The translations under genes were made by a program, and so were the position numbers. This document shows, piece after piece, positions 10,122 through 45,867 of a stretch of DNA of 64,000 nt. Under the pieces are notes generated by a model, which was not told the DNA's origin, did not search any database, and saw nothing but the letters and a program-made list of their open reading frames with translations. How positions within the stretch are numbered: the first letter of the stretch is position 1; each line of letters begins with the position of its first letter. The stretch is taken from the sequence record MN850597.1; one strand, 5' to 3'. The DNA is from Escherichia phage isim.

Positions 10122-10367
10122 CTATTTCACAATGCCTACAAAACAGATCCCGCCTTCACCTATATAAGCAATATCGGTCACTTTATAACTTGTCAAGATC
10201 TGTTTATTCAGTTCATTAATAAAATCGGTCATTGCGTTGGTGTAGTTGTCTTCCGTGTCTAAGGCATAATCCCAGGTGTACACCTTTTTACGTCCGAAGC
10301 CTTTTACCATGATACGGGCGCTTTTGGTGTTGGTAGGGGCATAATATTTGGTGATTAGTGCTGCCAT
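10122..10367 (-). CDS. hypothetical protein (81 aa)
   Basis: ORF; RBS AGAGGAG; preceded by palindromic promoter module copy 2. Confidence 0.55.
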   Translation of the reverse strand: MAALITKYYAPTNTKSARIMVKGFGRKKVYTWDYALDTEDNYTNAMTDFINELNKQILTSYKVTDIAYIGEGGICFVGIVK

Positions 10368-21793: not shown

Positions 21794-22635
21794 CAATAGT
21801 TCAGGTAGGTCGTTAAGCTACCCCGCACCATTACGTGCACAGCCATACGGTTTCCTGTATGGATCGGACTATCTCACTACCTTGTTACCAAGGCACCTCT
21901 CATTTCGACCGCACTTGCTGGCCTACTCTACTCGCTTCTTCACACCAAACTATGTTGGAGCTATGCTTTCGATAGTCTCTGAACGTTACTACCAGGTGTA
22001 GTTTTTAGAGATATGTTTCCACTGTCTTCTTTGCTTTATGGCTCTGACCGTCTCATAAGGATACCCAAGATCCCTAATCTCACATTGTCGTAGACCACTC
22101 TGCAACAGTTCACAAATCTCCATTACCTCATCCTCGGTCAGCACAGCGTTGGCATTATACTCACCGACTGGCCTTACTCTGAGCTCATTATCGTAGGCGT
22201 GTTTGATATTTTCACCGGGGGTAGTCCATTCCAGGTTCCAGTATGCATTGTTGTACTTATTTCCATCCTTATGGTTCACCCATGTGAGCTTTTCAGGATC
22301 AGGGTTCGGTACAAAGCATTCAGCAACCAAGTGGTGGACACCTTTTGTGCACTGCCTTCCATCGATGAGCATGGTTACGCAAAGGTAACCTCTACCATTA
22401 TCAAAACAAAACATTGTTGTATGATCACGTTTCGATAAAGGTATTGTTCCATCATCAAACACGATATACCCGTGATAATCAGCTGATCTAGCCATTTTAA
22501 CTACACCCCTTTAGTCTTCGCTGCGGATTAGCATATTGAGTTTTTACCATGTTTAGGTGTAAAAGTCAACTTAGCCTTCCCGTCAATTAAAGAGGTTTTC
22601 GACGTGCATCACTGCACGAAGCCACAATGTTATTT
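21794..22635 (-). mobile_element. putative group I intron (about 842 nt) interrupting the DNA polymerase gene inside motif C and carrying an HNH endonuclease ORF
   Basis: Exon 1 ends ...IIYYH then stops 2 codons later; exon 2 begins DEYQ; proposed 5' junction follows a U and the 3' junction follows a G. Confidence 0.5.
21989..22495 (-). CDS. HNH homing endonuclease (168 aa)
   Basis: VHHLVAECFVPNP...VNHKDGNKYNN...NLEWTTPGEN matches the HNH homing-endonuclease signature. Confidence 0.8.
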   Translation of the reverse strand: MARSADYHGYIVFDDGTIPLSKRDHTTMFCFDNGRGYLCVTMLIDGRQCTKGVHHLVAECFVPNPDPEKLTWVNHKDGNKYNNAYWNLEWTTPGENIKHAYDNELRVRPVGEYNANAVLTEDEVMEICELLQSGLRQCEIRDLGYPYETVRAIKQRRQWKHISKNYTW

Positions 22636-25059
22636 ATGGTAATAGATAATACGACGAACACCTTCATCGTACCACCCACGCTTCACCATTTGGTGGTGCA
22701 TAAGTATCCCAACTAAGTCACACAGCGATGCACCACCATTCTGTTGGTATGCATTAAGTAAAGAGTGTTTAGATCGGGTCCAGATGGCATGACCATCAAA
22801 AGAGTAGATAAACTTCTTACCCGTTGCTTCCCAGAATTTCTCCAGATCCTCTTTACGCCCCTTAAGACCAGGGTTGGCATCCCAAAGTGCATCGATCACC
22901 CTTTGTCCCAACTCTGGAGAGATGTCCAGCATATCTGCAACTTTATCTTTTTGTGCCCCGTACATAACCCCATACGTGATAGGTTTACCGTCGTTACGAG
23001 ACACCTCTCTGCCTGCTACTTTTGTATATGCCTCAGCATTGTTTTGGTGTGCGTCCCCGTTACTTACAACATCATAATACAAGCCGTTGTCGAACTCAAA
23101 GGCACCCCAAGCCCCGATAAGCTGCTCTAAGTTGGACCCGTCAATACCGATCTCAAAGTATCCTGGAGGAACACCCCACAGACTACGCATCTCTTTACCC
23201 ATAACCACTTTAGGAGATGGTTTAGGCATGTTTGCACAAATACTGTGTTTCTGTCTGGAAGTGTTTGTTAATCCAGAGCTTTTAGCAGGAAGCTTATGGT
23301 CAATCTTCAAACGTGGGTGATTAAGAAGACCAGTATCAACCTTATCCTCCTTAATTGGATCAAGGACCGATCTGCGGTTTCGCAATGATAACCACAAGAC
23401 GATATCTTTAGCCATCTCTCCGTTCAATTTTTCAAGATTCGGACATAGGTGTCCAAACGTATCTTTCAGTTGCGGAGAAGTAATAAGTGCTCTGGCTTTT
23501 CTACGTATTTTCCCGAATACTTCCTTTTTAATCCTTTCGGAGTTAGGAAAGCTTCGGAACTTGTGCACGGTTGTCTGGAACTTAGCATCAGTTTTGTTCC
23601 AGAAGTTGATAATCAGGTCACAATACTCTGACTCTAAAAGCTCGTCCATATATGCATATACTCGTGCATCAACATCTGCATCAGGTAGAGCTTTCTTCTT
23701 GCTGTCTTTAGTTACATCCTTAGTTCTCCACATTGTCGGAAGCCAACCAGCACTGATCAGGTATCGCTTAATATCGTCCTGATTGCTGATTTTCATAGGT
23801 ATCTTGCAGTCAGGCATTCGCTTCTGCTGCAGATCGCTTATTGCCTGATCCATCAGCTCTTTAGGTAAAGGTTGTGGTGTGGAGGTGCCCTTAATATAAC
23901 CTCTCAAGAAATCAGCCATCTTGTCTGGGTCTTTGCAGCCCATCTCTTCACACCATTTTATCCCCATTTTACTGACATCTCCTGTGGAGGTAAATGCTCG
24001 CTTAGGTGGGGCTTTGAACTCTAAAGCGCTCATGTCTACAGGATAGCCAAGCTTATCTTTTAACCATTTCCAACCATTATTGGAGATTGTCCCATCTTGG
24101 TTAAACGGCTTTTCAGGGAACTTGGGCCGCTGAGACATTGACAGCTCTTTTAAAGGTAGTTGTGGTTCAACACGATCAGCTATTTCTTTCATCCACGCAT
24201 CGCAACGGTCACGTAAAGCAATAGCCCCGTCTATGTCGAAATACACACCCTGACGGGCCTGCAGCTCCATCAGGAAGTGCTGCAGCATGCCTCGGCGTAA
24301 TGCGTTCTTCCAGGTGATCTTCTTGAACCCTTTTGGCTTCTCTTTGGCAGGATCGTACATAAAGTTCTGCATGTCAGATTTGCCGTAGAATACACCTTTT
24401 GATTCCGCTACCAGCTCTTTCCAGAGCAGCTCCTGGATGATAACGTCCTCGAATACACGATCCACATACTTCCACAGCGGAAGATCGCGCCAGTCATCAA
24501 TTTGAACTTTCTGGTTACCAAGAGCGTAGCCCCATGCCATAAGGCCGTGAGGACCAACAGGCTGCATTTTCTTAGTAACCGGGTTGAATACAGAGTCCGG
24601 GCAACCTTTTGGTAAAGGGCGATCAGGCCACAAGATTCGGCTCATCGCCAACGTATCGAACAGGTTAACCTGGTGGTCGTTGATAGTCCCCATACATTTA
24701 GGATCACGGAACATATCAAAATGAATACCGGATAATCTCTCCATCAGCATAAAGTCATAACTGTAGCAGTTATGGCAGTTCAAAGCTGTTGGTGACCAGT
24801 CGGAATTTCCTGTAAGCCAACCTTCCAACTCCGAAAAATCTGCTATGCGAACTTCAAAATCTTTATAAAGAGTTTTCTTTGCCAGAATAAAGTTCTTAGC
24901 CTTCTCTATATCCTCCTCGGAGTAGTGTGTGCGGTCATTTAGAGGAAGGAACAGCATAAAACGGTTCTTATTCAGCTCTTTAAACAGGCCGCAATGATAA
25001 TAAAGATCTGGGTCTTCCAGCAAACCGGATGACTCAAAATCGAACGACCACATGCTCAT
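22636..25059 (-). CDS. DNA polymerase, family A (T7 gp5-like), N-terminal exon with 3'-5' exonuclease and polymerase motifs A and B; ORF stop at 22630
   Basis: Exo I FDFESSGLLE...HCG (T7 DIEANALLE...HCG), motif A GIDGSNLEQ, motif B RNDGKPITYGVMYGA, then FDGHAIWTRSKHSLLNAY; the HDE motif is missing from this ORF. Confidence 0.85.
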
Positions 25060-25117
25060 ATACAGTTCTCCTTAAAGGGGAGGCGGTTGTACTACCCCTC
25101 CCACTCTTTGTTAAACA

Positions 25118-27196
25118 TTAAAAAGGTGTTTCATCATCCTCAAAACCAGGAACATGGTCAGAGGACGGATCATCGTACTGGAGGTCTTCCTGCGTGTCAA
25201 CAGGCTTAACAGTAGGAGTTACAACCTTATCAGCCACAACCTTACCCATAGGTGTTTCTACAACTGCATGCTCCTGATCCTCAAACATAGCCTGAGGTCT
25301 CCAAACAACCTCCCCACCTTCTCCATCTGTAAACATTTGCATTTCTTTGTCCCAGTACCAATTACTGGCATCATGGAACTTACCTGTATGTGGGTCCATA
25401 ACCAAAGTGTCTGCAATACCTAAAGTTTTTGCTGGACGGTTTTTAAGACCTACCAGTCGGACACGCCCACGAGAACGATCCACCATTTCTTCGGCCTCGA
25501 CACCTATGACTACCCAACTCAACTGTTCAAGCCCAGCCGATCCTCGCAAATTCTCTTTTCGCACAGGATACCAGAAAGGTAACGGGTTACCATCCTTGTC
25601 CTTAGGAGGCACAATCTCTGTACGTTTGAGGTGAGCGATCACCAAGATAAACACATTGAACTGCTTACAAAACGCAGCCAGCTGGGTCATAGCCATGTCC
25701 AGTTCTTTTCGCTCATCCTTAACATTAAGCCCCGAAATTACCATGGACAGGTGATCCAGCACAATATAACGGCAATGGTACAGGCAAACCATTTGCTTAA
25801 GCTTGGTAATCAACTCGTCCACCGGAATAGACCCGAAATGTTTGAACACTTTGATTTTTCCAGCTTTTGCCCATGATTGGTGAATCTCTGCGTGTTCTTG
25901 ATCAGTTAAAAACTGGCTAGGATCTTCAACAAACTCTTTAACATCAAACCCTAGCTGGTTTGCATACAAGGAGTTAATTGCTTCCTCTGGGTCCTCCTCA
26001 AGATGGATCATGCATAGACGATCATCCTCTTCATAGTCATCGGCCTTCGGGCATGTCGGGTCCATCAAGTATCTTGCAATACAATGTTCCAGTTTTTTAG
26101 CTACAGTTGTTTTACCGCCCCCTGATGGCCCTGTAAGCATTACGAGTGTCCCTTTGTGCAAGCCTTTTAGCATTTTTTGCAGTTTTGGAAACTCTGCGCT
26201 GATATCTACCCCGTTGGAAGTCTTTTTCCGCAAAGATTCGATAGAGAAGTCTTCTAAATCCGACACAGCATCAGGCACATACTTAACAGGATGCCGGAAC
26301 ATGTTTACAATATCTTCCAGCTTTTTAGCCTTTAGCATGTCACGGATATCTTTTACACCGTCAGGATCGTTTACCTCACCGGGGTATTCTACGTGGTAAA
26401 CGTTATCAGCCATCAAAAATGCTGCGATATTGTGCGTTGCCTCAACACCTTTAATGACGTGTTTTTGCTTCTCTACCTCGTTAGCTGCATCGTTATCCAT
26501 TGCCAGCACAACTGTTCCATAGCTACGGATAAACTTCTCATTGTTTGCAAAAGTATCTACTGCGTTTGCACATCCACAGTTAATTCCAACAAAAGGCAGG
26601 CATGGTTTTCCTGCCAGATCGCCACCGTTGATAACTGCATCGATCCCGTCCTGGACCTCTTTAGCCCACTGTTTCACCTTTGCCGGGGCTTTAGCGTTGG
26701 TGAGAATCCCTTTTACTTGTATCTGATATGCAGCCTGCCATGCTGCAATAACATCACCTTCTCCCTCACAAACGTTAATCTGCTTACGGTTGTTGGAAGA
26801 TGCACACAGCTTTTGACCAAACATCTGAGAGTTAGCCTTTACTATGCCAACAACGGAGAAATGGCCTCTTTGCTCTTTAGGAATCGTCCAGTCACGCTTT
26901 TTGAAACCGGACAGATTTCCGTAGCGGTCGTAATATGGGAAATATGTTGCAGTGACTGTCACACCATCTTCTTGGGATAATGCTGATCGCACACCAAAAT
27001 ATTGTGCAGCCATCAGACCGATATTTTGTTGTGGGACAGGGACAATTTTAGTATTTTCTAAAACAGTCTCTACAGTTTCAACTTCTTTTTCATCACGATA
27101 GTCTCGTTTCACACTTCCCCCACTTTTATACTTAGTTGCTTTCGGGTTTGGCTCACCGAAACGGTTGTATGCAGATGCCATAAATTTACTTCCCAT
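25118..27196 (-). CDS. DNA primase/helicase (TOPRIM primase plus DnaB-like helicase, T7 gp4-like) with acidic C-terminal tail ending ...EDDETPF (692 aa)
   Basis: TOPRIM EGEGD and MDNDAAN; Walker A GPSGGGKTT; acidic tail ending in Phe. Confidence 0.8.
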   Translation of the reverse strand: MGSKFMASAYNRFGEPNPKATKYKSGGSVKRDYRDEKEVETVETVLENTKIVPVPQQNIGLMAAQYFGVRSALSQEDGVTVTATYFPYYDRYGNLSGFKKRDWTIPKEQRGHFSVVGIVKANSQMFGQKLCASSNNRKQINVCEGEGDVIAAWQAAYQIQVKGILTNAKAPAKVKQWAKEVQDGIDAVINGGDLAGKPCLPFVGINCGCANAVDTFANNEKFIRSYGTVVLAMDNDAANEVEKQKHVIKGVEATHNIAAFLMADNVYHVEYPGEVNDPDGVKDIRDMLKAKKLEDIVNMFRHPVKYVPDAVSDLEDFSIESLRKKTSNGVDISAEFPKLQKMLKGLHKGTLVMLTGPSGGGKTTVAKKLEHCIARYLMDPTCPKADDYEEDDRLCMIHLEEDPEEAINSLYANQLGFDVKEFVEDPSQFLTDQEHAEIHQSWAKAGKIKVFKHFGSIPVDELITKLKQMVCLYHCRYIVLDHLSMVISGLNVKDERKELDMAMTQLAAFCKQFNVFILVIAHLKRTEIVPPKDKDGNPLPFWYPVRKENLRGSAGLEQLSWVVIGVEAEEMVDRSRGRVRLVGLKNRPAKTLGIADTLVMDPHTGKFHDASNWYWDKEMQMFTDGEGGEVVWRPQAMFEDQEHAVVETPMGKVVADKVVTPTVKPVDTQEDLQYDDPSSDHVPGFEDDETPF

Positions 27197-27950
27197 TAAT
27201 TCTGCTCCTTACTACAGGCTCGTTTGCTAAGAATACGGCTTTTGCCCAGCCACGTGGTGTGAGGCTTCGAATCATCTTCGTTCTTGCACTCTTTCCACCC
27301 AGCTTGGCGTGTTGCATGGAATACCCGCTAACCACGTCAACTATTTGCGGGACAGGTTTTGTGGCCGGGATTATAAATCCATTACCTATCCAGCCGCAAG
27401 TTATTTTTGGATAGGCATCACGTGGAGCTATAAATTCAGGAAACCATGGGTTTACATCATCTTCCGGTAAATACCCGCCATAGTCAGAAGGATGAAAACG
27501 GTAATCAGGTTTGCGCCACAGTGTGGACATAACACCTACAGGATTCTCTACATGCCACGGGCAATCGTAAATCTCTCCCAGCTCTTCCGCAACCCGAGCA
27601 TCCCTTACAGCATTAATTTGGATCATGGGATCCTTAGCCAGCTTTTTCTTAAAATGTGCAGCACCTGATACCGCTAAATGCGTGCACGGAGGAAATGCAA
27701 GAATAAAGTCTGGAGCTGGGTACATGCAAAAAGTTTCCTGAGGGAACCATGGGTCAATCCAATAATCCACATAGTGAATGTTGGGATGATCGGTTATCAC
27801 CTCTGCATAACTGCCGTGATCAGCACCTTCTGCATTAAAGCACAGGCACAGATACCCAGCTTTTGCCCAGTCAATGACTGCACCACCAGATCCGTCAAAT
27901 AGGCTCCACACAACACCTTTGTGGTAGTGTTCTTTGTAGATAAATTTCAA
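27186..27950 (-). CDS. DNA (cytosine-5)-methyltransferase-like protein, short form (about 254 aa from TTG; ORF track starts at 27980)
   Basis: Motif I LFDGSGG, motif IV FPPCTH (PC), motif VI HVENPVG (ENV); RBS AGGAGA 7 nt before TTG at 27950; too short for a full target-recognition domain. Confidence 0.55.
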   Translation of the reverse strand: MKFIYKEHYHKGVVWSLFDGSGGAVIDWAKAGYLCLCFNAEGADHGSYAEVITDHPNIHYVDYWIDPWFPQETFCMYPAPDFILAFPPCTHLAVSGAAHFKKKLAKDPMIQINAVRDARVAEELGEIYDCPWHVENPVGVMSTLWRKPDYRFHPSDYGGYLPEDDVNPWFPEFIAPRDAYPKITCGWIGNGFIIPATKPVPQIVDVVSGYSMQHAKLGGKSARTKMIRSLTPRGWAKAVFLANEPVVRSRINGK

Positions 27951-27974
27951 TTTGCTGTCTCCTAATGCAAAAAG

Positions 27975-28000
27975 CCCCACCCTTTCGGGCAGGGCCTAGT
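27975..28000 (-). terminator. GAAA-tetraloop hairpin plus U-run, second identical copy
   Basis: Same 20-nt sequence as 16999-17018; lies between the 28002 stop and the methyltransferase RBS. Confidence 0.55.
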
Positions 28001-28001
28001 G

Positions 28002-28484
28002 TTAAACCCGGATACCTATTGTATACTCGGTGGATACCAATGTCAAATCTAAATTTAAAATTTCTTGCATCTCATAATATGCGTCCAGGGTGAGATACAT
28101 TTCCCCATCCTTTTCTACATACTTGTCCAAGTGCTTGAGGCATTTCGGATAACTATCGAGTGCAGCTTTCAGACACTCAAACTCTGTGCTGTTGATGAGT
28201 CCTTCCATCTTGGCTACCCGTTCTGGGGTAACGATAGCACTGTAGTGAGATTTAGCTTCCTGAATGCAATGGGTCCAAGCATCAACTTTCTCTTCGAAAA
28301 GCCCGAAGAATTTCTTTTTGGTGAGCTTCAGATTCTTTAAGTGCTTAAGCACTCGGTTGCCGATCACAGCCACATCACGAAACTTAAGGATCACTTTGTC
28401 GATATCCTCGCGGCCTATTTTCACAAAGCAAGCCTCACACATTTCAGGAGCTGCGTAACCTACTTTCCACATAAAATCTGACAT
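28002..28484 (-). CDS. hypothetical protein (160 aa)
   Basis: ORF in series. Confidence 0.55.
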   Translation of the reverse strand: MSDFMWKVGYAAPEMCEACFVKIGREDIDKVILKFRDVAVIGNRVLKHLKNLKLTKKKFFGLFEEKVDAWTHCIQEAKSHYSAIVTPERVAKMEGLINSTEFECLKAALDSYPKCLKHLDKYVEKDGEMYLTLDAYYEMQEILNLDLTLVSTEYTIGIRV

Positions 28485-28496
28485 AACACTATCTCC

Positions 28497-28895
28497 TTAT
28501 TCTTCCTGAAAAGCAACGATATCATATGAACTTGCAGACGATCCTGGTGAAGAATGACTCCAGTCTAGGTCATCAGAGTAGTCAGCGTACTGTGCACCAC
28601 TACGTAGTTTATATTTTACCCACTTACCTGGTGCAGGGTTTTCACCACCTTCCCATACTTCCCAGCCTTCTGGCAGGCCGTCCTGGGAATAGTCATCCAC
28701 CTCACTAATAATCTTAGGGTTTGGCACCAAGATCCCTGCAGGCTCTTCCTTCCGGATAAGTGTCCACACAACGTAGGTGTCTGAGCAGGCGCATGATAGC
28801 AAAGTATATCCACTATTCAGAACTTCTGCAAGCTCTTTTTCAGCATCTTCCAATTTGGTTAAGTGGTATTGGAGAATCTTCACACCTGTAATCAT
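28497..28895 (-). CDS. hypothetical protein (132 aa)
   Basis: ORF in series. Confidence 0.55.
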   Translation of the reverse strand: MITGVKILQYHLTKLEDAEKELAEVLNSGYTLLSCACSDTYVVWTLIRKEEPAGILVPNPKIISEVDDYSQDGLPEGWEVWEGGENPAPGKWVKYKLRSGAQYADYSDDLDWSHSSPGSSASSYDIVAFQEE

Positions 28896-29239
28896 CAGAA
28901 ACCTCCCACTTCTTCAGCAAATGCAGCTGCTGTCGTCGCTGCATCCAGATAGGACTCTAGTTCACGGGCTGCACGTTTGTAAATTGAGTGTCGCAAATCG
29001 TTTGGCAGTTGGTGGAAGTCCACCTCTTCACCGTTGTGGTAAACATACACATCGGTAATTTGTCTAAATCCGTAATAGTCAACATCAGAATCACGGCACT
29101 CTGGGTCTGGCAACTGGACAACTGCCTGAGCTTCCACAGTGAACATATCGTCAAGTTCGAAATCGATTTCAAAAGTGTATGGTTTATAACATTTCATCAT
29201 TTGATTGTACTCTTTATTGATCAGACTTATCTTTCGCAA
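28895..29239 (-). CDS. hypothetical protein (114 aa)
   Basis: ORF; start overlaps the methyltransferase stop. Confidence 0.55.
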   Translation of the reverse strand: MRKISLINKEYNQMMKCYKPYTFEIDFELDDMFTVEAQAVVQLPDPECRDSDVDYYGFRQITDVYVYHNGEEVDFHQLPNDLRHSIYKRAARELESYLDAATTAAAFAEEVGGF

Positions 29240-30539
29240 TTAAGGTCGGGGCAAGTTTGTAATAACGGAAGCCACCACCACCTTGCCAGTTTACAGACTT
29301 AGAAATACCACCTTGATCTTCACCATCGATCACTTTTTCCAAGCGCGGAATAATATGGGTATGACAATGATCACCTAGCTCGATTGAGATCCAACGTCTT
29401 TTCATCTTGTGAGCTACAGCAGCAGTAGTTCCCGAACCACCGAATGAATCCAATACCAAATCGCCTTCTCGCGTACACATTTCGAAAATTCGCTTCAAAA
29501 GCGCTTCTGGTTTTTTCCCATTTTTGAAACTAACGCCGCCTTCATTTGCTATTCCATTCCAACTAATGTCTGTCCAAACATCAGTTATTAGTTCCGCAGG
29601 TTGCATATCACCGTCAATTTCCAAAAGCCTGTTGGAGTAAAAGACCATTTGCCTACCATTTACGATATAAAATCCTTCAACATCTTCATTTGGATGTACA
29701 TAAACCTTATCCCTATCTTTCTTTGACTTCTCGATAGTTTCTTTTCTCTTTATTTTAGCACCACCGCCGATTGCAACAGATTGAAATACACGTTCTGCAT
29801 TATCAATTGCGAATTGTGCTAATTCATCATCGAATGTATCAGGCAGTTTTTTCTTGGCCTCTTTTGCATCTTTATAGCCATTGGCCTTTGCAAACGCATC
29901 GGCAATACCGCACCACGTCCAATTTTTATAATGGTCATCCGGGTTTAATAGGTATTTGTTATATCCTGTATCATACCCTTTAGGTATATAGATTTTGTTA
30001 AGCGGTTTCTGGGTGCGATCTTTTGCATATACAAGCAAAAAGTTTGCTGTGGAGAAAACTGTGGCTCCTGTTGCCTTAAATCCCGAAGGGGAATTTGTGG
30101 TCATCGATATGGTATTTAACTGATTTGCACGACCAAAAATCTCGTCCATCAAAACTTTTAAATACGCCATTTCGCAATCATCTAAGTGAACGAATATTAC
30201 CCCATCATCACTTAGAAGATTACGAATTATTTCTAACCTATCCCTCATTAAGCCCAGCCAAATGGAATGCTCAAGGCTATCATCGTAGTGCTCAAAAGCC
30301 CTTCCAGTATTGAATGGTGGGTCTATGTAAACACACTTCACTTTGCCTGCATACTCTTGCTCTAGCGCCTTCAATGCTAATAAGTTATCTCCAAAAATCA
30401 GTTTATTATCAAAAATATCGTTTTCGGTCACTTTCTGGCTGTGGTAAGACTTGCTAGAATCTTCTAACAAAATGTGCGGCTCTAACTTTTTGCGCTCGTT
30501 TTTACCTATCCAGGTTAGTTCTAATTTGGTTTTGCTCAT
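29214..30539 (-). CDS. N6-adenine (or N4-cytosine) DNA methyltransferase, beta-class, type III Mod-like, orphan (441 aa)
   Basis: Motif IV VYIDPPFNTG precedes motif I LVLDSFGGSGTT; no adjacent restriction gene. Confidence 0.8.
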   Translation of the reverse strand: MSKTKLELTWIGKNERKKLEPHILLEDSSKSYHSQKVTENDIFDNKLIFGDNLLALKALEQEYAGKVKCVYIDPPFNTGRAFEHYDDSLEHSIWLGLMRDRLEIIRNLLSDDGVIFVHLDDCEMAYLKVLMDEIFGRANQLNTISMTTNSPSGFKATGATVFSTANFLLVYAKDRTQKPLNKIYIPKGYDTGYNKYLLNPDDHYKNWTWCGIADAFAKANGYKDAKEAKKKLPDTFDDELAQFAIDNAERVFQSVAIGGGAKIKRKETIEKSKKDRDKVYVHPNEDVEGFYIVNGRQMVFYSNRLLEIDGDMQPAELITDVWTDISWNGIANEGGVSFKNGKKPEALLKRIFEMCTREGDLVLDSFGGSGTTAAVAHKMKRRWISIELGDHCHTHIIPRLEKVIDGEDQGGISKSVNWQGGGGFRYYKLAPTLIAKDKSDQ

Positions 30540-30600
30540 CGTTTGGTGCTCTCCTTAGTTTTTTGTGGGGAGGAGGCCTCCCCTTTATACTCACATCTTA

Positions 30601-30942
30601 CTACTCAAGGTCTTCAGAGTCAAGCTCAAAAAGAATCAAACTGTGCATGCCTGCAGAGAGATCAACACACCCTGCAACAATAAGGGTCTGATAGTAAGGT
30701 TCAGCACCCTCGATGTCTTCGTTAAAATCCACAACAAGGTAGTCACCTTTGTTAAAGGTGTATTTGTCCGATGTGAATGCAAAACCTGCCCAGTCCCCTA
30801 CTGCAGGATCTTTATCAGTCACCTTTGTTAGCAGTAGATCTTTTTCACGAGATCTTTTAGTAAAATCGTGAATCACAACATCCTTCTCTTCAGGAGTTGG
30901 ATTGCCACACACGTAGTTAACGATATTTCTCCACAAACTCAT
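30601..30942 (-). CDS. hypothetical protein (113 aa)
   Basis: ORF in series. Confidence 0.5.
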   Translation of the reverse strand: MSLWRNIVNYVCGNPTPEEKDVVIHDFTKRSREKDLLLTKVTDKDPAVGDWAGFAFTSDKYTFNKGDYLVVDFNEDIEGAEPYYQTLIVAGCVDLSAGMHSLILFELDSEDLE

Positions 30943-38959: not shown

Positions 38960-39230
38960 TTGTCATTTTACATTCTTGAAATTTTAACACAAGACGGTGA
39001 TTGTGTCTAGTGTCTAAAAAGATTTTTTCAACCATCAGGCACACGGTATAACCGTCCATCTTGTTAACAACAAAATCTCCAGGGTGAGGGAGGATGTCCC
39101 CTGGATTGGGGAAACATAACCCGCTCAAGAAGGCATCATCGGTGGTGGACTTAATGGATTTCCACACACTATCTGCCTGAACATTCTCACCAACATAATA
39201 TACATTACCACATGCCTTCATCATAGTCAA
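38952..39230 (-). CDS. hypothetical protein (92 aa)
   Basis: ORF in series. Confidence 0.5.
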   Translation of the reverse strand: MTMMKACGNVYYVGENVQADSVWKSIKSTTDDAFLSGLCFPNPGDILPHPGDFVVNKMDGYTVCLMVEKIFLDTRHNHRLVLKFQECKMTIA

Positions 39231-40126
39231 ACCCTCGCATAAATTAAACTTGTATCAGTATACTTTTTTAATGGGTAAATATCCTGTCCATAGATGCAAT
39301 CATTAAACACCTCATCTACCCAAAGGCTACACTTATATCCCATCATTTCTAAAACACCCATCTCTTCTTCGGTAAACTTATCACCGCTCTTGCAAGATGT
39401 CAATACCTCATTCTGAACTCTTGCTACCTCGAAGCGGTTATTGGCAATATCGCTATTGGCGATCAAATACTCACCTAGAGGGTGTGCGGCATTAAAGATG
39501 CACAGTGGACGGCTGACGTAATAGTCTCCAGGTGTATAAAAATTATTGAGGTCTTTCACTAGAACATTCTTATCAGTCACTTCATTTATAACATCATGCA
39601 TATCGCACATCTTTATATGTTTGAGGATTCCATCCCCCATCACAAAATAAAAACTTGCTGAAACACTTTCGGCATAGATCTTACTAGATCCGTTGTAGTT
39701 GTATTTTACTCGGATGCTAACGGGGGTTTTTCCTGTCGCGTTAGCCATCATCCAAAGAAATGGCAGCTCATACTTCTCCTCTGAGGAAACAAAAGGTGAA
39801 GTAGCCAGAGATCGAAAACCTCCAGAGAAGTTGAAAGTTACAGAACCGCTCCGGCGGTATGATACTGCGTATTCTACTTTTATATCAACGTATCCGTTGG
39901 AGTAAGTATGCCCTCCATTATCAAGGTATGTCCACTTATCAGACCCGGATACCAACCTCCGCTCAATTACCTTCATCACCATAGGAATTAGCGGATTAGT
40001 ACAAACCGATCTTGAAGTAGCTTTATCATCCAAAGCCTCGTAAATTGCAGAAAGGATGTCCCCAGCTGAAAGATTGGTTGTTATGTCCTGTTTCCACCGC
40101 GTACTAAAACTGTTAAGATTTGCCAT
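39227..40126 (-). CDS. hypothetical protein (299 aa), first gene of the minus block at the strand switch
   Basis: ORF with RBS; promoter TTGACT-N17-TATAGT upstream. Confidence 0.6.
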   Translation of the reverse strand: MANLNSFSTRWKQDITTNLSAGDILSAIYEALDDKATSRSVCTNPLIPMVMKVIERRLVSGSDKWTYLDNGGHTYSNGYVDIKVEYAVSYRRSGSVTFNFSGGFRSLATSPFVSSEEKYELPFLWMMANATGKTPVSIRVKYNYNGSSKIYAESVSASFYFVMGDGILKHIKMCDMHDVINEVTDKNVLVKDLNNFYTPGDYYVSRPLCIFNAAHPLGEYLIANSDIANNRFEVARVQNEVLTSCKSGDKFTEEEMGVLEMMGYKCSLWVDEVFNDCIYGQDIYPLKKYTDTSLIYARV

Positions 40127-40166
40127 AAGTAAGTGCTCCTATGTTAGTTTTCTTTCGAATGGGTGC

Positions 40167-40237
40167 ACTATATCGGAGATTTAGAGTAAAGTCAACACGT
40201 TTTTGATGTTGACATCTATTGAAACAATTGATACGAT
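40167..40237. promoter_or_regulatory. Divergent sigma70-like promoter pair at the strand switch (minus: TTGACT-N17-TATAGT at 40167-40195; plus: TTGACA-N17-TACGAT at 40209-40237)
   Basis: Hexamers read directly on both strands between divergently oriented gene blocks. Confidence 0.5.
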
Positions 40238-40268
40238 TTCTTCACTTACAGGGCACGAGAGACAACTC

Positions 40269-41246
40269 ATGAATCTTGAAAAATATTATACACCAGAAGA
40301 GTTAGAGCGCCTGCTCAAAAAATATAGACGCAAACAGAATAATGCACGGAAACGAGATATAGAGTTCAACCTGTCATGGGAAGAATACCTCCTATTTGGT
40401 AAAAAACTTTTAGGAGATGGAGTATGCGACTATACCCTTATACCTTTTGACATGCACACAGATGAAAACGGGCTGGGAAATCCTTTCTACCCATCTTTGG
40501 AGCGTATAGATGATGAAGGTCCTTACGCAATTGACAATTGTTGTGTGGTAGGGTTGAGGTGCAATGCTCTGAAAGACTGTTTGGTAGATAAAAAGACTGC
40601 AATCCTGATTAAAGACAAAACTGATCGAAAAATTGTCCAGCAGATGATGCTCCACCTGAGCGAAGAGCGTATGGAGAAATTGAAAGGTGATTATACTTTT
40701 GAAGATTTCATCTTGCAATACGGGACAGAAGAAGATAAACTAGCACTATTTGACGAAGAGGAAGAAGATATGTCACCAATGCAGGACTTTAAAAATTTCA
40801 TGGCTGATCGTGCAGCCAACAAACACATTTCAGACATCGTGAACGAGACTGTGACAGAAGAAGTTGAAGAACAGAACTCTGAAGAGGAAAAAGAGCCTCA
40901 GGAGGTCGAAGAGGGGATTGCAGAAGAGGTTCCTGCACTGCCTGATGATGTTGAGATTGCTAAGGCTTACACTTTCTATTGTCAAACGTTCTACGATGCA
41001 GGTATGAAAGTTGATCTGTCGTTCAGCCAATTTAAGAGTTCGTATATTCGCAAATGCTGTGCTTTAACTGGTGAACGTCTCGGAGCTGGACTTAAACCAC
41101 TGTTGGTGACCGACTGGAATAAAGGTTTCACTAAAGGAAACTTTATGGTAGTATCTCCAATTATGGAGAAAGCTATGACAGATCTTATGAAGACCACCCG
41201 CATGACAATGACCGAGTTGGCAGGTATTTTCAAACACGTTAAATAA
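40269..41246 (+). CDS. hypothetical protein with acidic central region (about 325 aa; start moved to MNLEKYY because the plus promoter overlaps the ORF-track start at 40203)
   Basis: ORF; predicted promoter lies inside the first 35 nt of the longer ORF. Confidence 0.55.
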   Translation: MNLEKYYTPEELERLLKKYRRKQNNARKRDIEFNLSWEEYLLFGKKLLGDGVCDYTLIPFDMHTDENGLGNPFYPSLERIDDEGPYAIDNCCVVGLRCNALKDCLVDKKTAILIKDKTDRKIVQQMMLHLSEERMEKLKGDYTFEDFILQYGTEEDKLALFDEEEEDMSPMQDFKNFMADRAANKHISDIVNETVTEEVEEQNSEEEKEPQEVEEGIAEEVPALPDDVEIAKAYTFYCQTFYDAGMKVDLSFSQFKSSYIRKCCALTGERLGAGLKPLLVTDWNKGFTKGNFMVVSPIMEKAMTDLMKTTRMTMTELAGIFKHVK

Positions 41247-41258
41247 TGACAGGGGCCA

Positions 41259-42740
41259 ATGGCCCCTTCTGGAGTTTTAATGGATAGCAGAAGTTCAGAA
41301 ATCATTACCTCACAGAAAGATGATGCCCTGAGAATGTTGCAGGCTGCACGTATGTATCTCCTTGAAAAGCTGCCGTTTTATGGCACACTACTGTCAGGGT
41401 TGCAGTTCGTAGAAAACCACACATGGTGCTCCACCATGGCAACCGACCATAAACGCATCTATTACAGTCCTGAGTTCATTATGGGATTGGCTGATGAACG
41501 CAAGGCTATTCTTAAGGCTTCTCTAACTGACGAGCAGTTTGAGATGGCTGAAGTTTTCTATTCCCCAAAATCTGTGAAAGAGGTGGCCTTCCTTCTGTCA
41601 CATGAGGTGGGGCATATTATCTGTGATCACCTGGTCCGTGGTAAAAGCTTTGAGCCGGAACTGTTCAATATTGCTTGTGATCACGTTATCAACACAGGCC
41701 TTGTGGTTGACTTTAGCAAACCTCCTTGTGTTTTCTTCCCGAAGGGGAAAAGCACTACGTTCGTGAAAGGTAAGCCTTTTGGCTTCTTAGCCAGCTGCTA
41801 CTGCGACATGAAGTTTCATGGATGGATTGCTGAGAACGTTTATGCAGTTCTTGATAAGCAAAGAGATCAGAATAACGGTAAAAGTAAGAGCGGTAAAGGT
41901 GAGAACTCTCAAGGTGATAAGCGACAAACCGATGATCACATGAGTGGGAATGGTGGCACCAGTGATAATCTTGGAAAGGCTATGGGGTATGATCAGCCAC
42001 AACCTGTAATCAGCCAATCTGATAAAGATCAGGCCATGCAGGACTCTGGCGATATGCTGGAGGCAGCAATGCAAGCGTCCGGAGGCCGTTGCCCTGAGGC
42101 GGTGCGTGAGTTTGTCAAGAACAGAGGTAAGCCTGTAATCAACTATATAGACATCATTAAGCAACGCATGTTGTCTAAAAGAAAGGCCGAACTGACCTAC
42201 AGAAAACCTGGTCGCCGATCTGGGTCTTTGACCAGCACAATGCGAAAAGTTGGGGCTATAAACAAGAACCAGCACGTTATTGTTCCTGGTCGTAATCCGG
42301 AAAACACTATAGATATTGTGGTGGCTTTAGACGTTTCTGGCTCGATCTCTCAGAGAACTTTAAAGAAAATGTTCAATGAAATCACCGGATTGTGCAATCT
42401 GTATAAAGAGTTTAAGGTTACAATGTTCTGTTGGTCAACTGAGGTTGGAGAGGTTAAAGTATACACTCGCGGCAACATAGACGAGATGATCAACTATGAG
42501 GTCCACTCAACATGGGGCACAACAGCTGCTTGCGTGTTCGAGTATCTGGATGCCAACATACCGAATGCAAAAGATGTCATCGTCCTGACCGACCTATACT
42601 TTGAGCATAACTTTGAACAAAAGGCTGTTGACAACAAGTGGAAAAAGTACGATACTCTATGGGTCCTCACTGAAGGGTATAATAAAAATTATATCCCGAG
42701 CTTTGGGAAAACTGTGGAATTAATCGAGTACGCTAAGTAA
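41259..42740 (+). CDS. HExxH plus VWA-domain protein (CobT/DUF2201-like; usual partner of MoxR-type ATPases) (493 aa)
   Basis: HEVGHIICDH zinc-binding-like motif; VWA MIDAS-like VVALDVSGSIS. Confidence 0.7.
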   Translation: MAPSGVLMDSRSSEIITSQKDDALRMLQAARMYLLEKLPFYGTLLSGLQFVENHTWCSTMATDHKRIYYSPEFIMGLADERKAILKASLTDEQFEMAEVFYSPKSVKEVAFLLSHEVGHIICDHLVRGKSFEPELFNIACDHVINTGLVVDFSKPPCVFFPKGKSTTFVKGKPFGFLASCYCDMKFHGWIAENVYAVLDKQRDQNNGKSKSGKGENSQGDKRQTDDHMSGNGGTSDNLGKAMGYDQPQPVISQSDKDQAMQDSGDMLEAAMQASGGRCPEAVREFVKNRGKPVINYIDIIKQRMLSKRKAELTYRKPGRRSGSLTSTMRKVGAINKNQHVIVPGRNPENTIDIVVALDVSGSISQRTLKKMFNEITGLCNLYKEFKVTMFCWSTEVGEVKVYTRGNIDEMINYEVHSTWGTTAACVFEYLDANIPNAKDVIVLTDLYFEHNFEQKAVDNKWKKYDTLWVLTEGYNKNYIPSFGKTVELIEYAK

Positions 42741-42755
42741 GAGAGGAGGTTATTT

Positions 42756-43019
42756 ATGGCAACAGAGTTAAAATTTGCATCAAACCGTAAAACTAAGAAG
42801 TATCTGTCCTCAGTAGCTCCAGGCGCTGTGGTGATGTTTGTTGATGAACTTGGGGATGTGAATACAGCACTTGTTGTAAAATCACATCCTGCAAACATAT
42901 ATGTTGGGGTATTTGACCTGTTCAGAAAGGTGTTTGTAGAACTACCTCACAGTTTGGTTGTTACAGAAATGGATGCCTGCATAGAAATTCTTGGCGAAGT
43001 TATGGTGGAGGAACAATAA
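42756..43019 (+). CDS. tandem-paralog family member 1 (87 aa)
   Basis: MATELKFASNRKTKK...GAVV...LPHSLVVTEMDACIEILGE aligns with the next ORF; overlapping ATGA junctions. Confidence 0.6.
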   Translation: MATELKFASNRKTKKYLSSVAPGAVVMFVDELGDVNTALVVKSHPANIYVGVFDLFRKVFVELPHSLVVTEMDACIEILGEVMVEEQ

Positions 43020-43282
43020 TGGCTACTAGCATTGTATTCAATTCTAAGGTGAAGAACAAAAAGCGTGCAGACAGTTTTCCGTGTGGGACCGTGGTAAGTT
43101 GCGACGGAGACGGTATTCAAAACATAGTTATGATTGTCAAAACAGGAGAACATTGTGTGTGGGGGTTCGATTTAGAAAATAATGAGTTGTACGATCTGCC
43201 GCCAAACATGAAAGTTACAGAGCTTGACACCAAAATTACCATCCTTGGAGAGACAAGCTATTCAAAAGAAGGAGGAGAATAA
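43019..43282 (+). CDS. tandem-paralog family member 2 (87 aa)
   Basis: MATSIVFNSKVKNKK...GTVV...LPPNMKVTELDTKITILGE. Confidence 0.6.
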   Translation: MATSIVFNSKVKNKKRADSFPCGTVVSCDGDGIQNIVMIVKTGEHCVWGFDLENNELYDLPPNMKVTELDTKITILGETSYSKEGGE

Positions 43283-43545
43283 TGACCACAAAAATCACTA
43301 TCGCAGAACCGAAAGCTAACACTCAGCCTATCGAAAAGTTTAAGTGCGGTGAGGTGGTAACATTCACACCAGATAATGAAGATGCTAAGATTTTCGCAAT
43401 GGTCACAGCTGAGTGGATGTGTGACAACACCACACAGGTTCTGCGTTTTGACACCTATCTTACCGATGAAATCAGGAACGACAAGATTGTGACTGGTGTG
43501 GATACTGAGATTGTTTTCTACAAGAGCTTTTTAGAGGGTTTCTGA
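43282..43545 (+). CDS. tandem-paralog family member 3, more divergent (87 aa)
   Basis: Same length; KFKCGEVVTF vs SFPCGTVVSC; ATGA junction. Confidence 0.55.
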   Translation: MTTKITIAEPKANTQPIEKFKCGEVVTFTPDNEDAKIFAMVTAEWMCDNTTQVLRFDTYLTDEIRNDKIVTGVDTEIVFYKSFLEGF

Positions 43546-43546
43546 T

Positions 43547-43780
43547 ATGGCAAAAATTCGAAAATTATCTAGCAATCAGGTTGTGAAAGACTTCGAATCT
43601 GGAGAGATTCTTTATGTTCGTGATGCAGATGACGAAGGTGAAGATCTCGTTATGTTGGTGGGGCACGCTGAGGACGGATGCATCCAAGCTGTTTTTCTTG
43701 AAACAGCTATGGTGCACTGGATAGAGCTGGACTTGAAAGCACGAAAACCTAAAGCAGAAATCCTGATTTACGAAGATTAA
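43547..43780 (+). CDS. tandem-paralog family member 4, divergent (77 aa)
   Basis: FESGEILYV ... acidic patch; similar size and position. Confidence 0.5.
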   Translation: MAKIRKLSSNQVVKDFESGEILYVRDADDEGEDLVMLVGHAEDGCIQAVFLETAMVHWIELDLKARKPKAEILIYED

Positions 43781-43796
43781 CAAAAAGGAGATAGCC

Positions 43797-44246
43797 GTGT
43801 TGAGCAAGCGTGAATGCGACAGCATTAGCCTGAATTCTTATAAGAAACAATGGTTTGGGGTAGAAGTTTGCCGACTGCGGCTAGGCTCCTACCTGAACTT
43901 CGTTTATTATGAGAGCGATAGTCGTATCGTTTCTTATGAAGTGTTCTACACTAAGAACACCTTCGAACTGCGCCGTAAAGTGGATGGCGGGAGAACCACC
44001 CCCCAGAATAATTGGGAAACTATCCTACCTACAGATGTTATAGGAAGTCCTCTGAATGTATCTGAAGATGAAAATCTTATGGTTCATGCTATGATGGGAC
44101 TTGACAGCTTAGAGCTGGCGATCTATGATATGTCCATCGAAGCAGTTAAGCTGGACTACATCGAAAACACTTTAGAGGAAGGTATCAAGAAGTTTCTCAG
44201 TGAGAAATTAAAAGACCACTTTCATAAGGAGCTATATCTGTTATGA
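43797..44246 (+). CDS. hypothetical protein (149 aa)
   Basis: ORF; RBS AAAGGAG. Confidence 0.55.
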   Translation: MLSKRECDSISLNSYKKQWFGVEVCRLRLGSYLNFVYYESDSRIVSYEVFYTKNTFELRRKVDGGRTTPQNNWETILPTDVIGSPLNVSEDENLMVHAMMGLDSLELAIYDMSIEAVKLDYIENTLEEGIKKFLSEKLKDHFHKELYLL

Positions 44247-44488
44247 AGACCCGTAAAGAACGTAACAAAATTTTACCTGGAGCTCTCGAACACCTGATGA
44301 AGTGCAGATCTATTTGGCACTCTGCCAAGGAAGGGCAGAAGGTGGTTGTGGTTAGTGACAATACCAACCCGTTTGGAGATTATGCCACCATGATGGCCCC
44401 GTATGTCCGTGATGGCGTTGTGGAAGTGGTCCCTTACAACGGTCTGCATGAACGGCACTTTGAAAGCACTTTGCTAGTGGAGCTATAG
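44243..44488 (+). CDS. hypothetical protein (81 aa)
   Basis: ORF; start overlaps upstream stop. Confidence 0.5.
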   Translation: MKTRKERNKILPGALEHLMKCRSIWHSAKEGQKVVVVSDNTNPFGDYATMMAPYVRDGVVEVVPYNGLHERHFESTLLVEL

Positions 44489-44490
44489 TC

Positions 44491-45057
44491 ATGGCGGTCA
44501 ATGTGGCTTACAACACAGGAAAGCTTGACAGAGACATTGGGTGTCTTGTCCTTTCAGATACAGAAGAGTATTGGGGTTATGGGTTGCTGTCAGACCCACA
44601 CCCGAGCAACCTTGTATCAACAGTGCTATACCGCTACGACCCTGTGCCAACGGTACACGACAAAGACATTCACGACCTTCGGATCAAGTGTCTGGAAGAT
44701 CTGCTGAACAATGGTTGCAACGATCTGCGGGTAGCCAAAGAGAAGCTTACAAACATTCACAAAGAGGAAGTGATGAGCACCCTCAGTAAGAGATCAGTGC
44801 ACAAAAAGATGATGCTGAACTTTGCAATGGGTATCTACATGGGCGGGTATAAGGGAGGTGATCCGGTCCTCAAGCTTCGCTGCCCGACACTGTGGGAAAG
44901 AGTGGTTGACAGTAAGGACGGCACTGCCCTGCTCGAACTCCACACCGCAGGTTGGATTTGGCGGTATGTAGACGGATACCCTCTGTGGGCATGTGGACCT
45001 GGGGAATTTGTTGACAGACCTAGCGCGGTGGTGGACTTACTATTGCAGTTTGAATAA
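44491..45057 (+). CDS. hypothetical protein (188 aa)
   Basis: ORF in series. Confidence 0.55.
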   Translation: MAVNVAYNTGKLDRDIGCLVLSDTEEYWGYGLLSDPHPSNLVSTVLYRYDPVPTVHDKDIHDLRIKCLEDLLNNGCNDLRVAKEKLTNIHKEEVMSTLSKRSVHKKMMLNFAMGIYMGGYKGGDPVLKLRCPTLWERVVDSKDGTALLELHTAGWIWRYVDGYPLWACGPGEFVDRPSAVVDLLLQFE

Positions 45058-45115
45058 AAAAGGTGAGTTATAAGGTATTCATACACCTACCAACAATACA
45101 ACAGGAGAGACTGAG

Positions 45116-45391
45116 ATGACGAAAGAAGAGGCCGACGTATTAGATTTTGCACTAGAGGCTACGCAGGAGGCTTTGGTGTTAGCTTGGAAAATGAACCAGC
45201 GTGCTGCAGAATGCAACCGTCGCATCAATGAGATTCTGGGCATGTCTATGTATGATTTCACTATGCATGCCGGAGAGATTCCTGAACTAACTGCAGAGAT
45301 GAATGATCTTGACAATAAAATTAATATCATTCTGAAGACAGCAGAAACAACCCACCAAACCGCCCGTAAATTTATCAACGAGAAGGTGTGA
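45116..45391 (+). CDS. hypothetical protein (91 aa)
   Basis: ORF; RBS GGAGAG. Confidence 0.5.
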   Translation: MTKEEADVLDFALEATQEALVLAWKMNQRAAECNRRINEILGMSMYDFTMHAGEIPELTAEMNDLDNKINIILKTAETTHQTARKFINEKV

Positions 45392-45867
45392 ATATGGACT
45401 ACAGCTACTGCGGGGAAGAAGTTCCTTTTAACTACAGTAATCTTACCACAAGCAATCCATACGAGACTCGCCACGGCACACACATCATTGCCATTGACTT
45501 TGATGGAACGTTTAATGCGAGCCCTTTCATCTTCTCCCGCCTAATCAGGGACCTGAAGAAGGAGGGGTGGACAGTATACCTTGTGACTTTCCGATTCATT
45601 ACTCAAGACAATGTGGACATTGAGTATTGGCGCAAGGAGCTCGATGTTGGTGTGTTTTATACTGGCGGTGTTCAGAAGGCAGCCTACCTAGCGCAGTTTG
45701 ATATCTACCCAGATATCTGGGTTGATGATTCTCCGGCATGTATTCCGGCTAAAAATCAGTTAGAGTTTGCAATGAAGGAGATTGAGTACAAGTCTGAGGC
45801 TAAGCGGAACGGATGGCCCTTTATTATTGAAGATTACCCAGATCCTGAACCGGAGAAAGAGCCATGA
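45388..45867 (+). CDS. HAD-superfamily phosphatase, possible 5'-(deoxy)nucleotidase (159 aa)
   Basis: HAD motif I IAIDFDGT and motif IV-like IWVDDSP. Confidence 0.55.
   Translation: MNMDYSYCGEEVPFNYSNLTTSNPYETRHGTHIIAIDFDGTFNASPFIFSRLIRDLKKEGWTVYLVTFRFITQDNVDIEYWRKELDVGVFYTGGVQKAAYLAQFDIYPDIWVDDSPACIPAKNQLEFAMKEIEYKSEAKRNGWPFIIEDYPDPEPEKEP

Follow-up and report, generated by a model that had tools for sequence, protein, structure and literature searches.

What are two DNA methyltransferase genes doing close together in the replication module of a phage, with no restriction gene nearby? The question is raised by Escherichia phage isim (sequence record MN850597.1), of which a stretch of 64,000 nucleotides, here called the window, was analyzed. 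An earlier reading made from the letters alone, hereafter the sequence-only reading, had located there a beta-class N6-adenine methyltransferase and an unusually short C5-methyltransferase-like protein, and both were recovered as minus-strand open reading frames (ORFs). The adenine enzyme, of 441 residues, was found on sequence similarity to derive from part of a mod gene belonging to a Type III restriction-modification system, and the short C5 protein is a member of a very large, uncharacterized family of compact C5-fold proteins without a curated model. The precise host origin and the truncation of the Mod-derived gene, as well as the family membership of the C5 protein, go beyond the existing annotation. 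The two genes themselves are already annotated, as 'Dcm-like C5 cytosine methyltransferase' and 'putative N6 adenine methyltransferase' in BASEL records, with 'type III restriction-modification system methylation subunit' as another public name of the 441-residue gene; orphan phage methyltransferases are a well-known kind, and current understanding is not overturned. The features that carry the argument are the following.

27186..27950, minus strand: compact C5-cytosine-methyltransferase-like gene, most likely encoding 254 residues (from the ORF, phrog_757 and start-codon analysis)
29214..30539, minus strand: beta-class N6-adenine methyltransferase of 441 residues, a C-terminally truncated Type III Mod subunit (from the ORF, PF01555 and PDLC03636)
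29205..30552, minus strand: host-derived DNA segment, 94.2% identical to the E. coli chromosomal mod gene (8987-10349 of our locus L015; blastn boundaries)

The 441-residue protein carries YIDPPFNTG at residues 71-79 (DPPF at 73-76) and, later in the chain, DSFGGSGTT at 364-372 (FGGSGTT at 366-372), i.e. motif IV before motif I in the beta-class order, just as the sequence-only reading had described it. It matched the Pfam model PF01555 (N6_N4_Mtase) with E=5.9e-42 and 144.5 bits (cut-off 26.7), and the C5 protein matched phrog_757 ('DNA methyltransferase') at 5.6e-87; these hidden Markov model E-values exclude chance for both methyltransferases. The PADLOC model MTase_III (PDLC03636) was matched by the 441-residue protein at 4.8e-205 over model positions 2-444 of 575, and its relatives of solved structure are the Mod subunits of H. 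pylori (6k0w, 1.3e-28) and EcoP15I (PDB 4zcf, 1.5e-24). A search of 5.8 billion proteins returned a 567-residue E. coli protein with 96% identity over 99% of the query and about 100 further bacterial homologs with 60-77% identity, mostly of 540-640 and typically of 570-600 residues. Truncated forms of about 440 residues recur among the Mod homologs at several levels of divergence, including a second truncated copy (444 residues, 84% identity) encoded between PhoH and ClpP genes on another myovirus contig, at a different locus.

With the Type III Mod subunits of EcoP15I and H. pylori, the phage protein thus shares the beta-class order DPPF, recognition region, FGGSGTT, and the similarity begins at residue 2. 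It differs from the Type III systems in having no Res, in missing the last ~128 residues of the host protein and in being encoded by a stand-alone gene in a replication module. Neither the window nor the annotated genome of the related phage Bas51 was found to contain a res gene, and no restriction endonuclease gene occurs among the neighbors of the two methyltransferases, which are replication, hypothetical and rII genes; the sole nuclease genes nearby encode homing endonucleases. The orphan status given to the pair in the sequence-only reading was therefore borne out.

By DNA identity, the window comes from an rV5-like Vequintavirus. Escherichia phages JES2013 and O157 typing phage 4 share 98.8% identity with positions 27000-30700 of the window, a region matched at 90% identity or above by 117 phage records, nearly all from Vequintavirus (rV5-like myoviruses); in more than 100 public records the pair of genes is already annotated. 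Homology to the E. coli mod gene spans 30552 down to 29205, beginning 13 nt ahead of the start codon and ending 9 nt beyond the stop codon. Compared with the E. coli gene, 11 nt are deleted near codon 437 of the phage copy, and the resulting frameshift leads into a stop codon; the first ~437 codons, which encode both catalytic motifs (IV and I) as well as the central recognition region, are kept, and the remaining ~128 codons are dropped (441 versus 568 residues). In phage AlexBoehm (Bas56), the same flanking genes are present and the methyltransferase is cleanly absent. Its flanks align to positions 32000-30536 and 29202-27000, so that the extra segment of the window coincides almost exactly with the E. 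coli-like DNA. The insert, of about 1.3 kb, is bounded by a short repeat (microhomology), AAAYGATGA. Its upstream edge lies beside one further feature.

30567..30583, minus strand: perfect hairpin (GGGGAGG/CCTCCCC) and, after it, an AAGGAG Shine-Dalgarno sequence, a short way ahead of the Mod-derived gene (from the sequence)

Since the same hairpin and Shine-Dalgarno sequence precede the next gene in AlexBoehm, the insertion separated a phage ribosome-binding site from its start codon. The hairpin occurs once in the window (zero expected by chance), and a repeated element was accordingly ruled out.

The truncation, the remnant homology past the stop codon and the many full-length bacterial relatives support, at the level of sequence, a transfer from host to phage. 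The capture makes a clean, datable case of its kind, with 94-95% identity, defined junctions and part of the gene discarded. Over 436 codons, the phage and E. coli copies have a synonymous divergence (dS) of 0.19, a nonsynonymous divergence (dN) of 0.015 and a dN/dS ratio of 0.076, and the central region, which determines specificity in Mod proteins, differs by just four substitutions, all conservative. The Mod-derived gene was found in 87 phage records, compared with about 116 for the neighboring C5 gene at 90% identity or above, which makes it accessory in this genus; about one in four related phage records lacks it. The orphan gene is a shortened methylase copy from a host restriction system that was probably taken up to disguise phage DNA.

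A chromosomal copy of mod with 95% nucleotide identity was present in 24 of 5426 complete E. coli genomes, among them bovine Shiga toxin-producing E. coli (STEC) O177:H-, enterohemorrhagic E. coli O145:H25 and avian pathogenic E. coli (APEC) O1. In two of these genomes, mod (568 residues) lies in an island near tRNA-Sec (selC-linked), directly upstream of the gene for a 912-residue protein that matches PADLOC REase_III (8.9e-191) and Pfam ResIII, and the host Mod itself matches PDLC03636 end to end. Upstream of the host mod are genes for a helix-turn-helix protein, a DrmD-like SNF2 helicase, an AbiD protein and a hypothetical protein. The genome papers of the carrier strains do not give the recognition motif of the E. 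coli Type III system, and the C-terminal part of the host Mod that the phage has dropped gave no PDB or Pfam match. As a side observation, the island in E. coli 2014C-3011 (CP027591 5062284-5072352; L015 4115-14183) encodes a mad1-like helix-turn-helix protein, a DrmD-like SNF2 helicase of 964 residues (PADLOC DrmD, 1.3e-208), AbiD and two hypothetical proteins, and a remnant ArdA gene and degraded integrase genes adjoin the selC-linked island, which together with mod-res may be a composite defense island.

On this basis, the Mod-derived enzyme would methylate adenine in the sequence recognized by the host Type III system, which is most probably short and asymmetric, on replicating phage DNA, and progeny phage would then be immune to that particular system. 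Loss of the C-terminal module would free the enzyme from Res.

Methylation data bearing on this proposal exist for the near-identical phage WalterGehring (Bas51), to which the window aligned in reverse orientation from ~95.8 kb down to 31.5 kb; the DNA homology extends to the proteins, with differences at 4 of 441 residues in the adenine enzyme and 2 of 264 in the C5 protein. Virion DNA of Bas51 was nanopore-sequenced in a 2025 study in which a phage 'N6 adenine methyltransferase' methylating GATC was the trigger of a retron (PMC12548924). The source data give N6-methyladenine (m6A) at 1405 GATC, 509 GTAC and 576 other positions in the wild type and at 35 GATC, 511 GTAC and 349 other positions in a T83P mutant (PMC12548924). 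We counted 703 GATC and 258 GTAC sites in the Bas51 genome, corresponding to 1406 and 516 adenines. Both motifs are therefore essentially fully methylated (1405 of 1406 and 509 of 516), and, as GTAC methylation is kept in the T83P mutant, it is independent of the GATC enzyme. To our knowledge, E. coli K-12 has no GTAC methylase, and the GTAC methylation is thus ascribed to a second phage enzyme. The 441-residue gene was considered as the GATC-methylating retron trigger and ruled out, its residues 69, 79 and 83 being C, G and E; the published mutations at D69, D79 and T83 fit the 177-residue NPPY enzyme bas51_0176, encoded outside the window. The near-identical Vequintaviruses encode four methyltransferases, the additional two in Bas51 (MZ501111) being bas51_0176 (39092-39625 of locus L009) and bas51_0200 (6069-6887 of locus L011). 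In being stand-alone genes of lytic phage genomes, the two genes of the window resemble other orphan phage methyltransferases (the Dam-type enzymes of T4 and T1, Dmt of P1, and bas51_0176). Near-complete virion methylation is demonstrated in the near-identical Bas51, although its GATC activity belongs to a gene outside the window.

The second gene of the pair belongs to a family of remarkable size and uniformity. The search for relatives of the C5 protein yielded 3550 homologs and 2063 clusters at 50% identity, and the lengths were nearly all 210-260 residues among the 120 best-listed homologs and the best 150 cluster representatives, a few fusions and fragments aside. By tblastn, the family is present in 1504 of 50,697 phage records (~3%), including T1-like phages (among them TLS, where the gene is named 'dcm'), Klebsiella siphoviruses, Dhillonvirus, Certrevirus, Phapecoctavirus and others. 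Throughout the Vequintavirinae and in related genera the gene is located near the primase/helicase gene, and from this kept position we conclude that it is a long-standing resident and not a recent pick-up. The epithet 'unusually short' in the sequence-only reading thus applies in comparison with canonical C5 enzymes and not within the protein's own family.

The motifs of the C5 protein were examined in an alignment of 30 close relatives and in a separate set of 105 distant relatives. All three motifs named in the sequence-only reading are present: motif I as SLFDGSGG (G30, S31 and G32 nearly invariant in the close relatives), motif IV as AFPPCTH (C99 invariant in the close relatives and the majority residue in at least 95% of the distant ones) and motif VI as HVENPVG (E145, N146 and P147 invariant in the close relatives). 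Among the distant relatives, G106, E145 and P147 are conserved in at least 95% and N146 in at least 80%. The acidic residue after strand 2 is kept in the family, and the S-adenosylmethionine-binding motifs I-III are present. Furthermore, a motif IX-like segment, IRSLTPRG, was recognized, in which I237, R238, S239, L240, P242 and R243 are invariant and T241 is conserved in at least 90% of the close relatives, with Gly at the position of the usual Glu. The earlier statement that a normal recognition domain and motifs IX and X are missing therefore holds for a full-size domain and a canonical motif X, but not for motif IX. The recognition region comprises ~35 residues (200-235) between strand 7 and motif IX, with no domain of 80-100 residues, and conservation in the family is lowest in its segment 200-231. 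R187, D188, Y190 and K192, conserved in the segment DYGGYLPEDD...PRDAYPKxT, may substitute for motif VIII. Most relatives end 10-15 residues after motif IX, and a confidently modeled terminal helix (243-263, predicted local distance difference test (pLDDT) ~96) may fill the role of motif X.

An AlphaFold2 model built with the 30 relatives (mean pLDDT 87.8, predicted template modeling score 0.87) showed the seven strands of a class I methyltransferase. In Foldseek the top 47 matches were DNMT3 catalytic domains (E ~1e-6), and the best fold matches were all C5 DNA methyltransferases; the modeled protein thus shows the C5-methyltransferase fold with all seven strands and comes nearest to DNMT3. 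Profile comparisons reached less far: a PDB profile search with the family gave marginal matches (E ~0.35) to DNMT3B and M.HaeIII over motifs I-IV, against E. coli Dcm the family profile aligned at motif IV alone (probability 0.3), and 20 of the 30 close relatives matched PF00145 weakly, with 1.3e-6 as the best value. Canonical C5 enzymes (PF00145; M.HhaI, M.HaeIII, Dcm) share with the phage protein motif I, the Pro-Cys of motif IV, the Glu-Asn-x of motif VI and the IX-like LTPRx, but have 327-472 residues with a recognition region of 80-100, compared with 254 and ~35 residues and no QxRxR or GN(A/S)V in the phage protein. Identity to DNMT3A, 3B and 3C is 12-15%, and DNMT3 differs in its clear motif X; it is active as a tetramer, formed with DNMT3L or a further DNMT3.

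From its motifs and predicted fold, the C5 protein would form 5-methylcytosine (5mC) in phage DNA, alone or as a homo-oligomer like DNMT3, and its target would be a short or relaxed sequence context. Stand-alone or homo-oligomeric 5mC formation in a short context is most likely the activity, as far as sequence comparison can suggest. One relative is fused to a D12 Dam-class DNA adenine methyltransferase, a fusion that fits DNA as the substrate of the family. The copies in lambdoid prophages lie in nin regions beside small Dam genes, without an endonuclease.

The explanation that we consider best, and taken as a whole probable, joins the two halves: a captured Mod that protects progeny phage, and a compact stand-alone C5 enzyme that makes 5mC. 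A number of observations weigh against it. The host Type III system is rare, being found in 0.4% of complete E. coli genomes. BASEL describes the Vequintavirinae as 'exceptionally susceptible' when challenged with the Type I, II and III systems tested; they seem to be without effective protection in the laboratory. The truncation might impair Mod dimerization. In Bas51, the nanopore motifs are just GATC and GTAC, beside an unexplained 'other' class of 349-576 sites, and the study was made without 5mC calling (PMC12548924). Of the two motifs, GATC is accounted for by bas51_0176, a third gene outside the window, and for GTAC there are two candidates, the 441-residue enzyme and bas51_0200 (272 residues, gamma class, NPPF near residue 85, likewise encoded outside the window). 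The C5 protein itself gave no Pfam or NCBIfam match at E<=0.01 and no match to PF00145 at E<=1, its alignment with 30 relatives contains no QxRxR motif VIII, the canonical motif X (GN[AS]V) is not recognizable, and the template modeling scores (TM-scores) of its model to solved structures are just ~0.45-0.5, DNMT3 included. No m5C data for the compact family were found in the literature; the same search yielded no m5C or restriction-digest data for rV5, the BASEL Vequintavirinae or T1-like phages, and no described 'minimal' C5 methyltransferase.

The susceptibility reported by BASEL implies that protection by these enzymes is narrow, which fits a methylase copied from one host system carried by so few E. 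coli genomes. The proposal of the sequence-only reading that the pair serves self-methylation against host restriction accordingly survives in a restricted form: protection is the most plausible role of both enzymes on the sequence evidence, with the 441-residue gene as a captured Type III Mod, but it must be narrow.

Two other roles were weighed for the Mod-derived enzyme. It could itself be the GTAC methyltransferase that fully methylates Bas51 DNA instead of acting on an asymmetric site in the Type III manner, which we regard as unlikely. It is one of the two remaining annotated adenine methyltransferases of Bas51, and the GTAC signal (509-511 of 516 positions) stays when the GATC enzyme is knocked out in a phage whose E. 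coli K-12 host is not known to us to add it; yet the 441-residue protein is near-identical to a genuine Type III Mod whose gene has res beside it. Characterized Type III Mods recognize asymmetric sites, and the restriction logic of their systems depends on site orientation. The known GTAC m6A enzyme M.HpyAXII is an M.TaqI-like gamma-class enzyme with motif IV near residue 87 (PMC2588503), and in its class and the position of its NPPF it is bas51_0200 that is alike. On these two grounds, our analysis favors bas51_0200 over the Mod-derived gene as the source of GTAC methylation, and in that case the target of the Mod-derived enzyme would hide among the 'other' sites. For bas51_0200, no Pfam or PDB match was obtained, its neighboring ORFs are without known domains, and searches of homologs and neighborhoods gave no link to GTAC. 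Alternatively, the truncated Mod might serve mainly as a decoy, poisoning Type III restriction through mixed or non-productive complexes with host Mod or Res rather than, or besides, methylating DNA. The 96% identity to host Mod over the kept region would suit such a role, as would the fact that the part removed is precisely a C-terminal module conserved among full-length homologs, and the recurrence of ~440-residue forms at several levels of divergence. DPPF and FGGSGTT are nevertheless intact, and purifying selection acts over the whole kept region (dN/dS 0.076), as expected of a working enzyme; a decoy would moreover need to be made ahead of the cleavage of incoming DNA, and the missing C-terminus has no PDB or Pfam match that would give its role. 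A decoy function therefore appears improbable to us, and methylation of the host Type III sequence is retained as the preferred role.

The sequence-only reading had further suggested that the C5 protein may need a partner or catalyze a different base modification, and neither idea fared well. Split C5 methyltransferases such as M.AquI and M.EcoHK31I exist, and the phage protein could be the catalytic subunit of such an enzyme, with a partner supplying the recognition domain and motifs IX and X. It does lack a canonical recognition domain and motif X, and it is adjoined by three small uncharacterized ORFs, one of which, of 114 residues, has a weak match to a PHROG named 'DNA methyltransferase' (phrog_1573, 3.6e-5). 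However, a motif IX-like segment is already present in the C5 protein and its seven-strand core is complete in the model. The neighbors of the gene are wholly different in TLS, Bas02, CR8 and lambdoid prophages, with none like the small ORFs of the window, and no shared neighbor of the family was found across TLS, JeanPiccard, CR8 and two lambdoid prophage contexts. The 114-residue ORF was detected by tblastn in 119 phage records, of which 115 are rV5-like at 80% identity or above (mislabeled records included) and four are weak matches in Erwinia phages, whereas the C5 family occurs in 1504 records. We thus assign a split enzyme only a very slight chance, the lowest given to any explanation here.

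Nor is it at all likely, in our estimate, that the protein transfers another group (for example carboxymethyl from carboxy-S-adenosylmethionine (Cx-SAM), as CmoX does), acts on RNA or nucleotides, or is catalytically dead. E. coli, the host, makes Cx-SAM, and motif X, the site of the cofactor-selecting residue in CmoX and M.HhaI, is not recognizable in the phage protein. CmoX (PDB 8yf3) has SPPC, carries Arg350 in place of Asn304 of M.HhaI and usually occurs with a phage CmoA and a ligase (PMC12783734). None of these features was seen for the phage C5 protein: it has FPPC, the corresponding terminal-helix position varies among K, R, L, A, E and Q in the family instead of holding a conserved Arg or Lys, and no CmoA or amide ligase is annotated in Bas51, a negative that refers to the annotation and not to a hidden Markov model search. 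A dead enzyme is argued against by the catalytic Cys and Glu, which are the majority residues in at least 95% of the 105 distant relatives, and an RNA or nucleotide substrate by the relative fused to a DNA adenine methyltransferase.

Stand-alone 5mC formation remains the preferred activity, and a bolder version of it can be put forward tentatively, as a doubtful but real possibility: the phage protein would represent a minimal, single-domain class of C5 enzymes, confined almost entirely to phages and prophages, DNMT3-like and without a canonical recognition domain or motif X, that reads a dinucleotide-scale or relaxed context, perhaps via oligomers, and serves in broad-spectrum 'painting' of cytosines at replication, with the truncated Mod as the methylating core of a Type III system on its own. 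In the Cronobacter phage CR8 (Certrevirus), a Lar-like restriction alleviation protein is encoded ~1 kb downstream of the short C5 gene (4717-4908 of locus L014), an arrangement that hints at a local anti-restriction cluster in Certrevirus.

These assignments have some practical bearing. Phages of the rV5 type are used against STEC and other E. coli, and about three quarters of them carry the Type III-derived methylase, which predicts plating on strains with that system (O177, O145:H25 and some APEC). Bas51-55, with the Mod-derived gene, and Bas56, without it, form a natural pair for comparison. The compact C5 family is widespread, neither Pfam nor NCBIfam has a model for it, and the literature yielded no biochemical data on its members; if active, the phage protein would be the smallest working C5 DNA methyltransferase and a possible enzyme scaffold.

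The extent of the C5 gene depends on the choice of start codon and on signals in the DNA ahead of it, where two further features were noted.

27972..27997, minus strand: G+C-rich terminator-like hairpin followed by a T run, between the ORF of 160 residues and the C5 gene, containing the GTG start (from the sequence)
28018..28046, minus strand: promoter-like sigma-70 site, TTGACA-17-TACAAT, with 11 of 12 matches, inside the 3' end of the ORF of 160 residues (consensus scan)

The longest C5 ORF, 27186-27980, starts from GTG and encodes 264 residues. A TAGGAG Shine-Dalgarno sequence (27964-27959) lies 8 nt ahead of the TTG codon at 27950, from which a protein of 254 residues (MKFIYK...) would be made, in agreement with the BASEL annotation and with the cluster representative P0001. 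Because the GTG at 27980 falls within the terminator-like hairpin and TAGGAG precedes the TTG at 27950, the 254-residue model is the better one, and the length of about 254 residues given in the sequence-only reading is upheld. At its other end, the last 11 nt of the gene overlap the start of the primase/helicase gene. The order of signals ahead of the C5 gene is odd, with a promoter-like site, a terminator-like hairpin and a ribosome-binding site in succession; promoter-like sites in the window are not enriched over shuffled sequences.

All genes between 22.6 and 35.5 kb are carried by the minus strand, in the order DNA polymerase, primase/helicase, C5-like gene, three small hypothetical genes, 441-residue methyltransferase, a small gene, Dda/PIF1-type helicase, rIIB and rIIA. 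Between the two methyltransferases lie the following genes.

28002..28484, minus strand: hypothetical protein of 160 residues (phrog_12900)
28497..28895, minus strand: hypothetical protein of 132 residues (phrog_11995)
28895..29200, minus strand: hypothetical protein of ~100 residues, extendable to a TTG at 29239 (114 residues; phrog_4240)

The 160-residue protein gave no Pfam or NCBIfam match, and the 114-residue ORF is located immediately downstream of the Mod-derived insertion.

Further along the same strand, the DNA polymerase gene is split into an ORF of 809 residues (22630-25059, minus strand) followed by one of 168 residues (21989-22495, minus strand); the latter is 94% identical to a 'putative homing endonuclease' inside the two-piece DNA polymerase coding sequence of Bas51. 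A second homing endonuclease, located between primase and polymerase in Bas51 and JES2013, is missing from the window (~0.78 kb, near 25019-25065). Among the database records, 16 GenBank entries (MG0656xx) labeled 'Campylobacter phage' with Campylobacter jejuni as host are 97.7-98.3% identical to E. coli rV5-like phages in this region; they are without annotation and look like mislabeled or contaminant E. coli phage genomes. Finally, the GC skew and AT skew switch sign in the window, being positive at ~40-47 kb and negative elsewhere, and the change at ~40000-47000 is consistent with a block of plus-strand genes within an otherwise minus-strand region.

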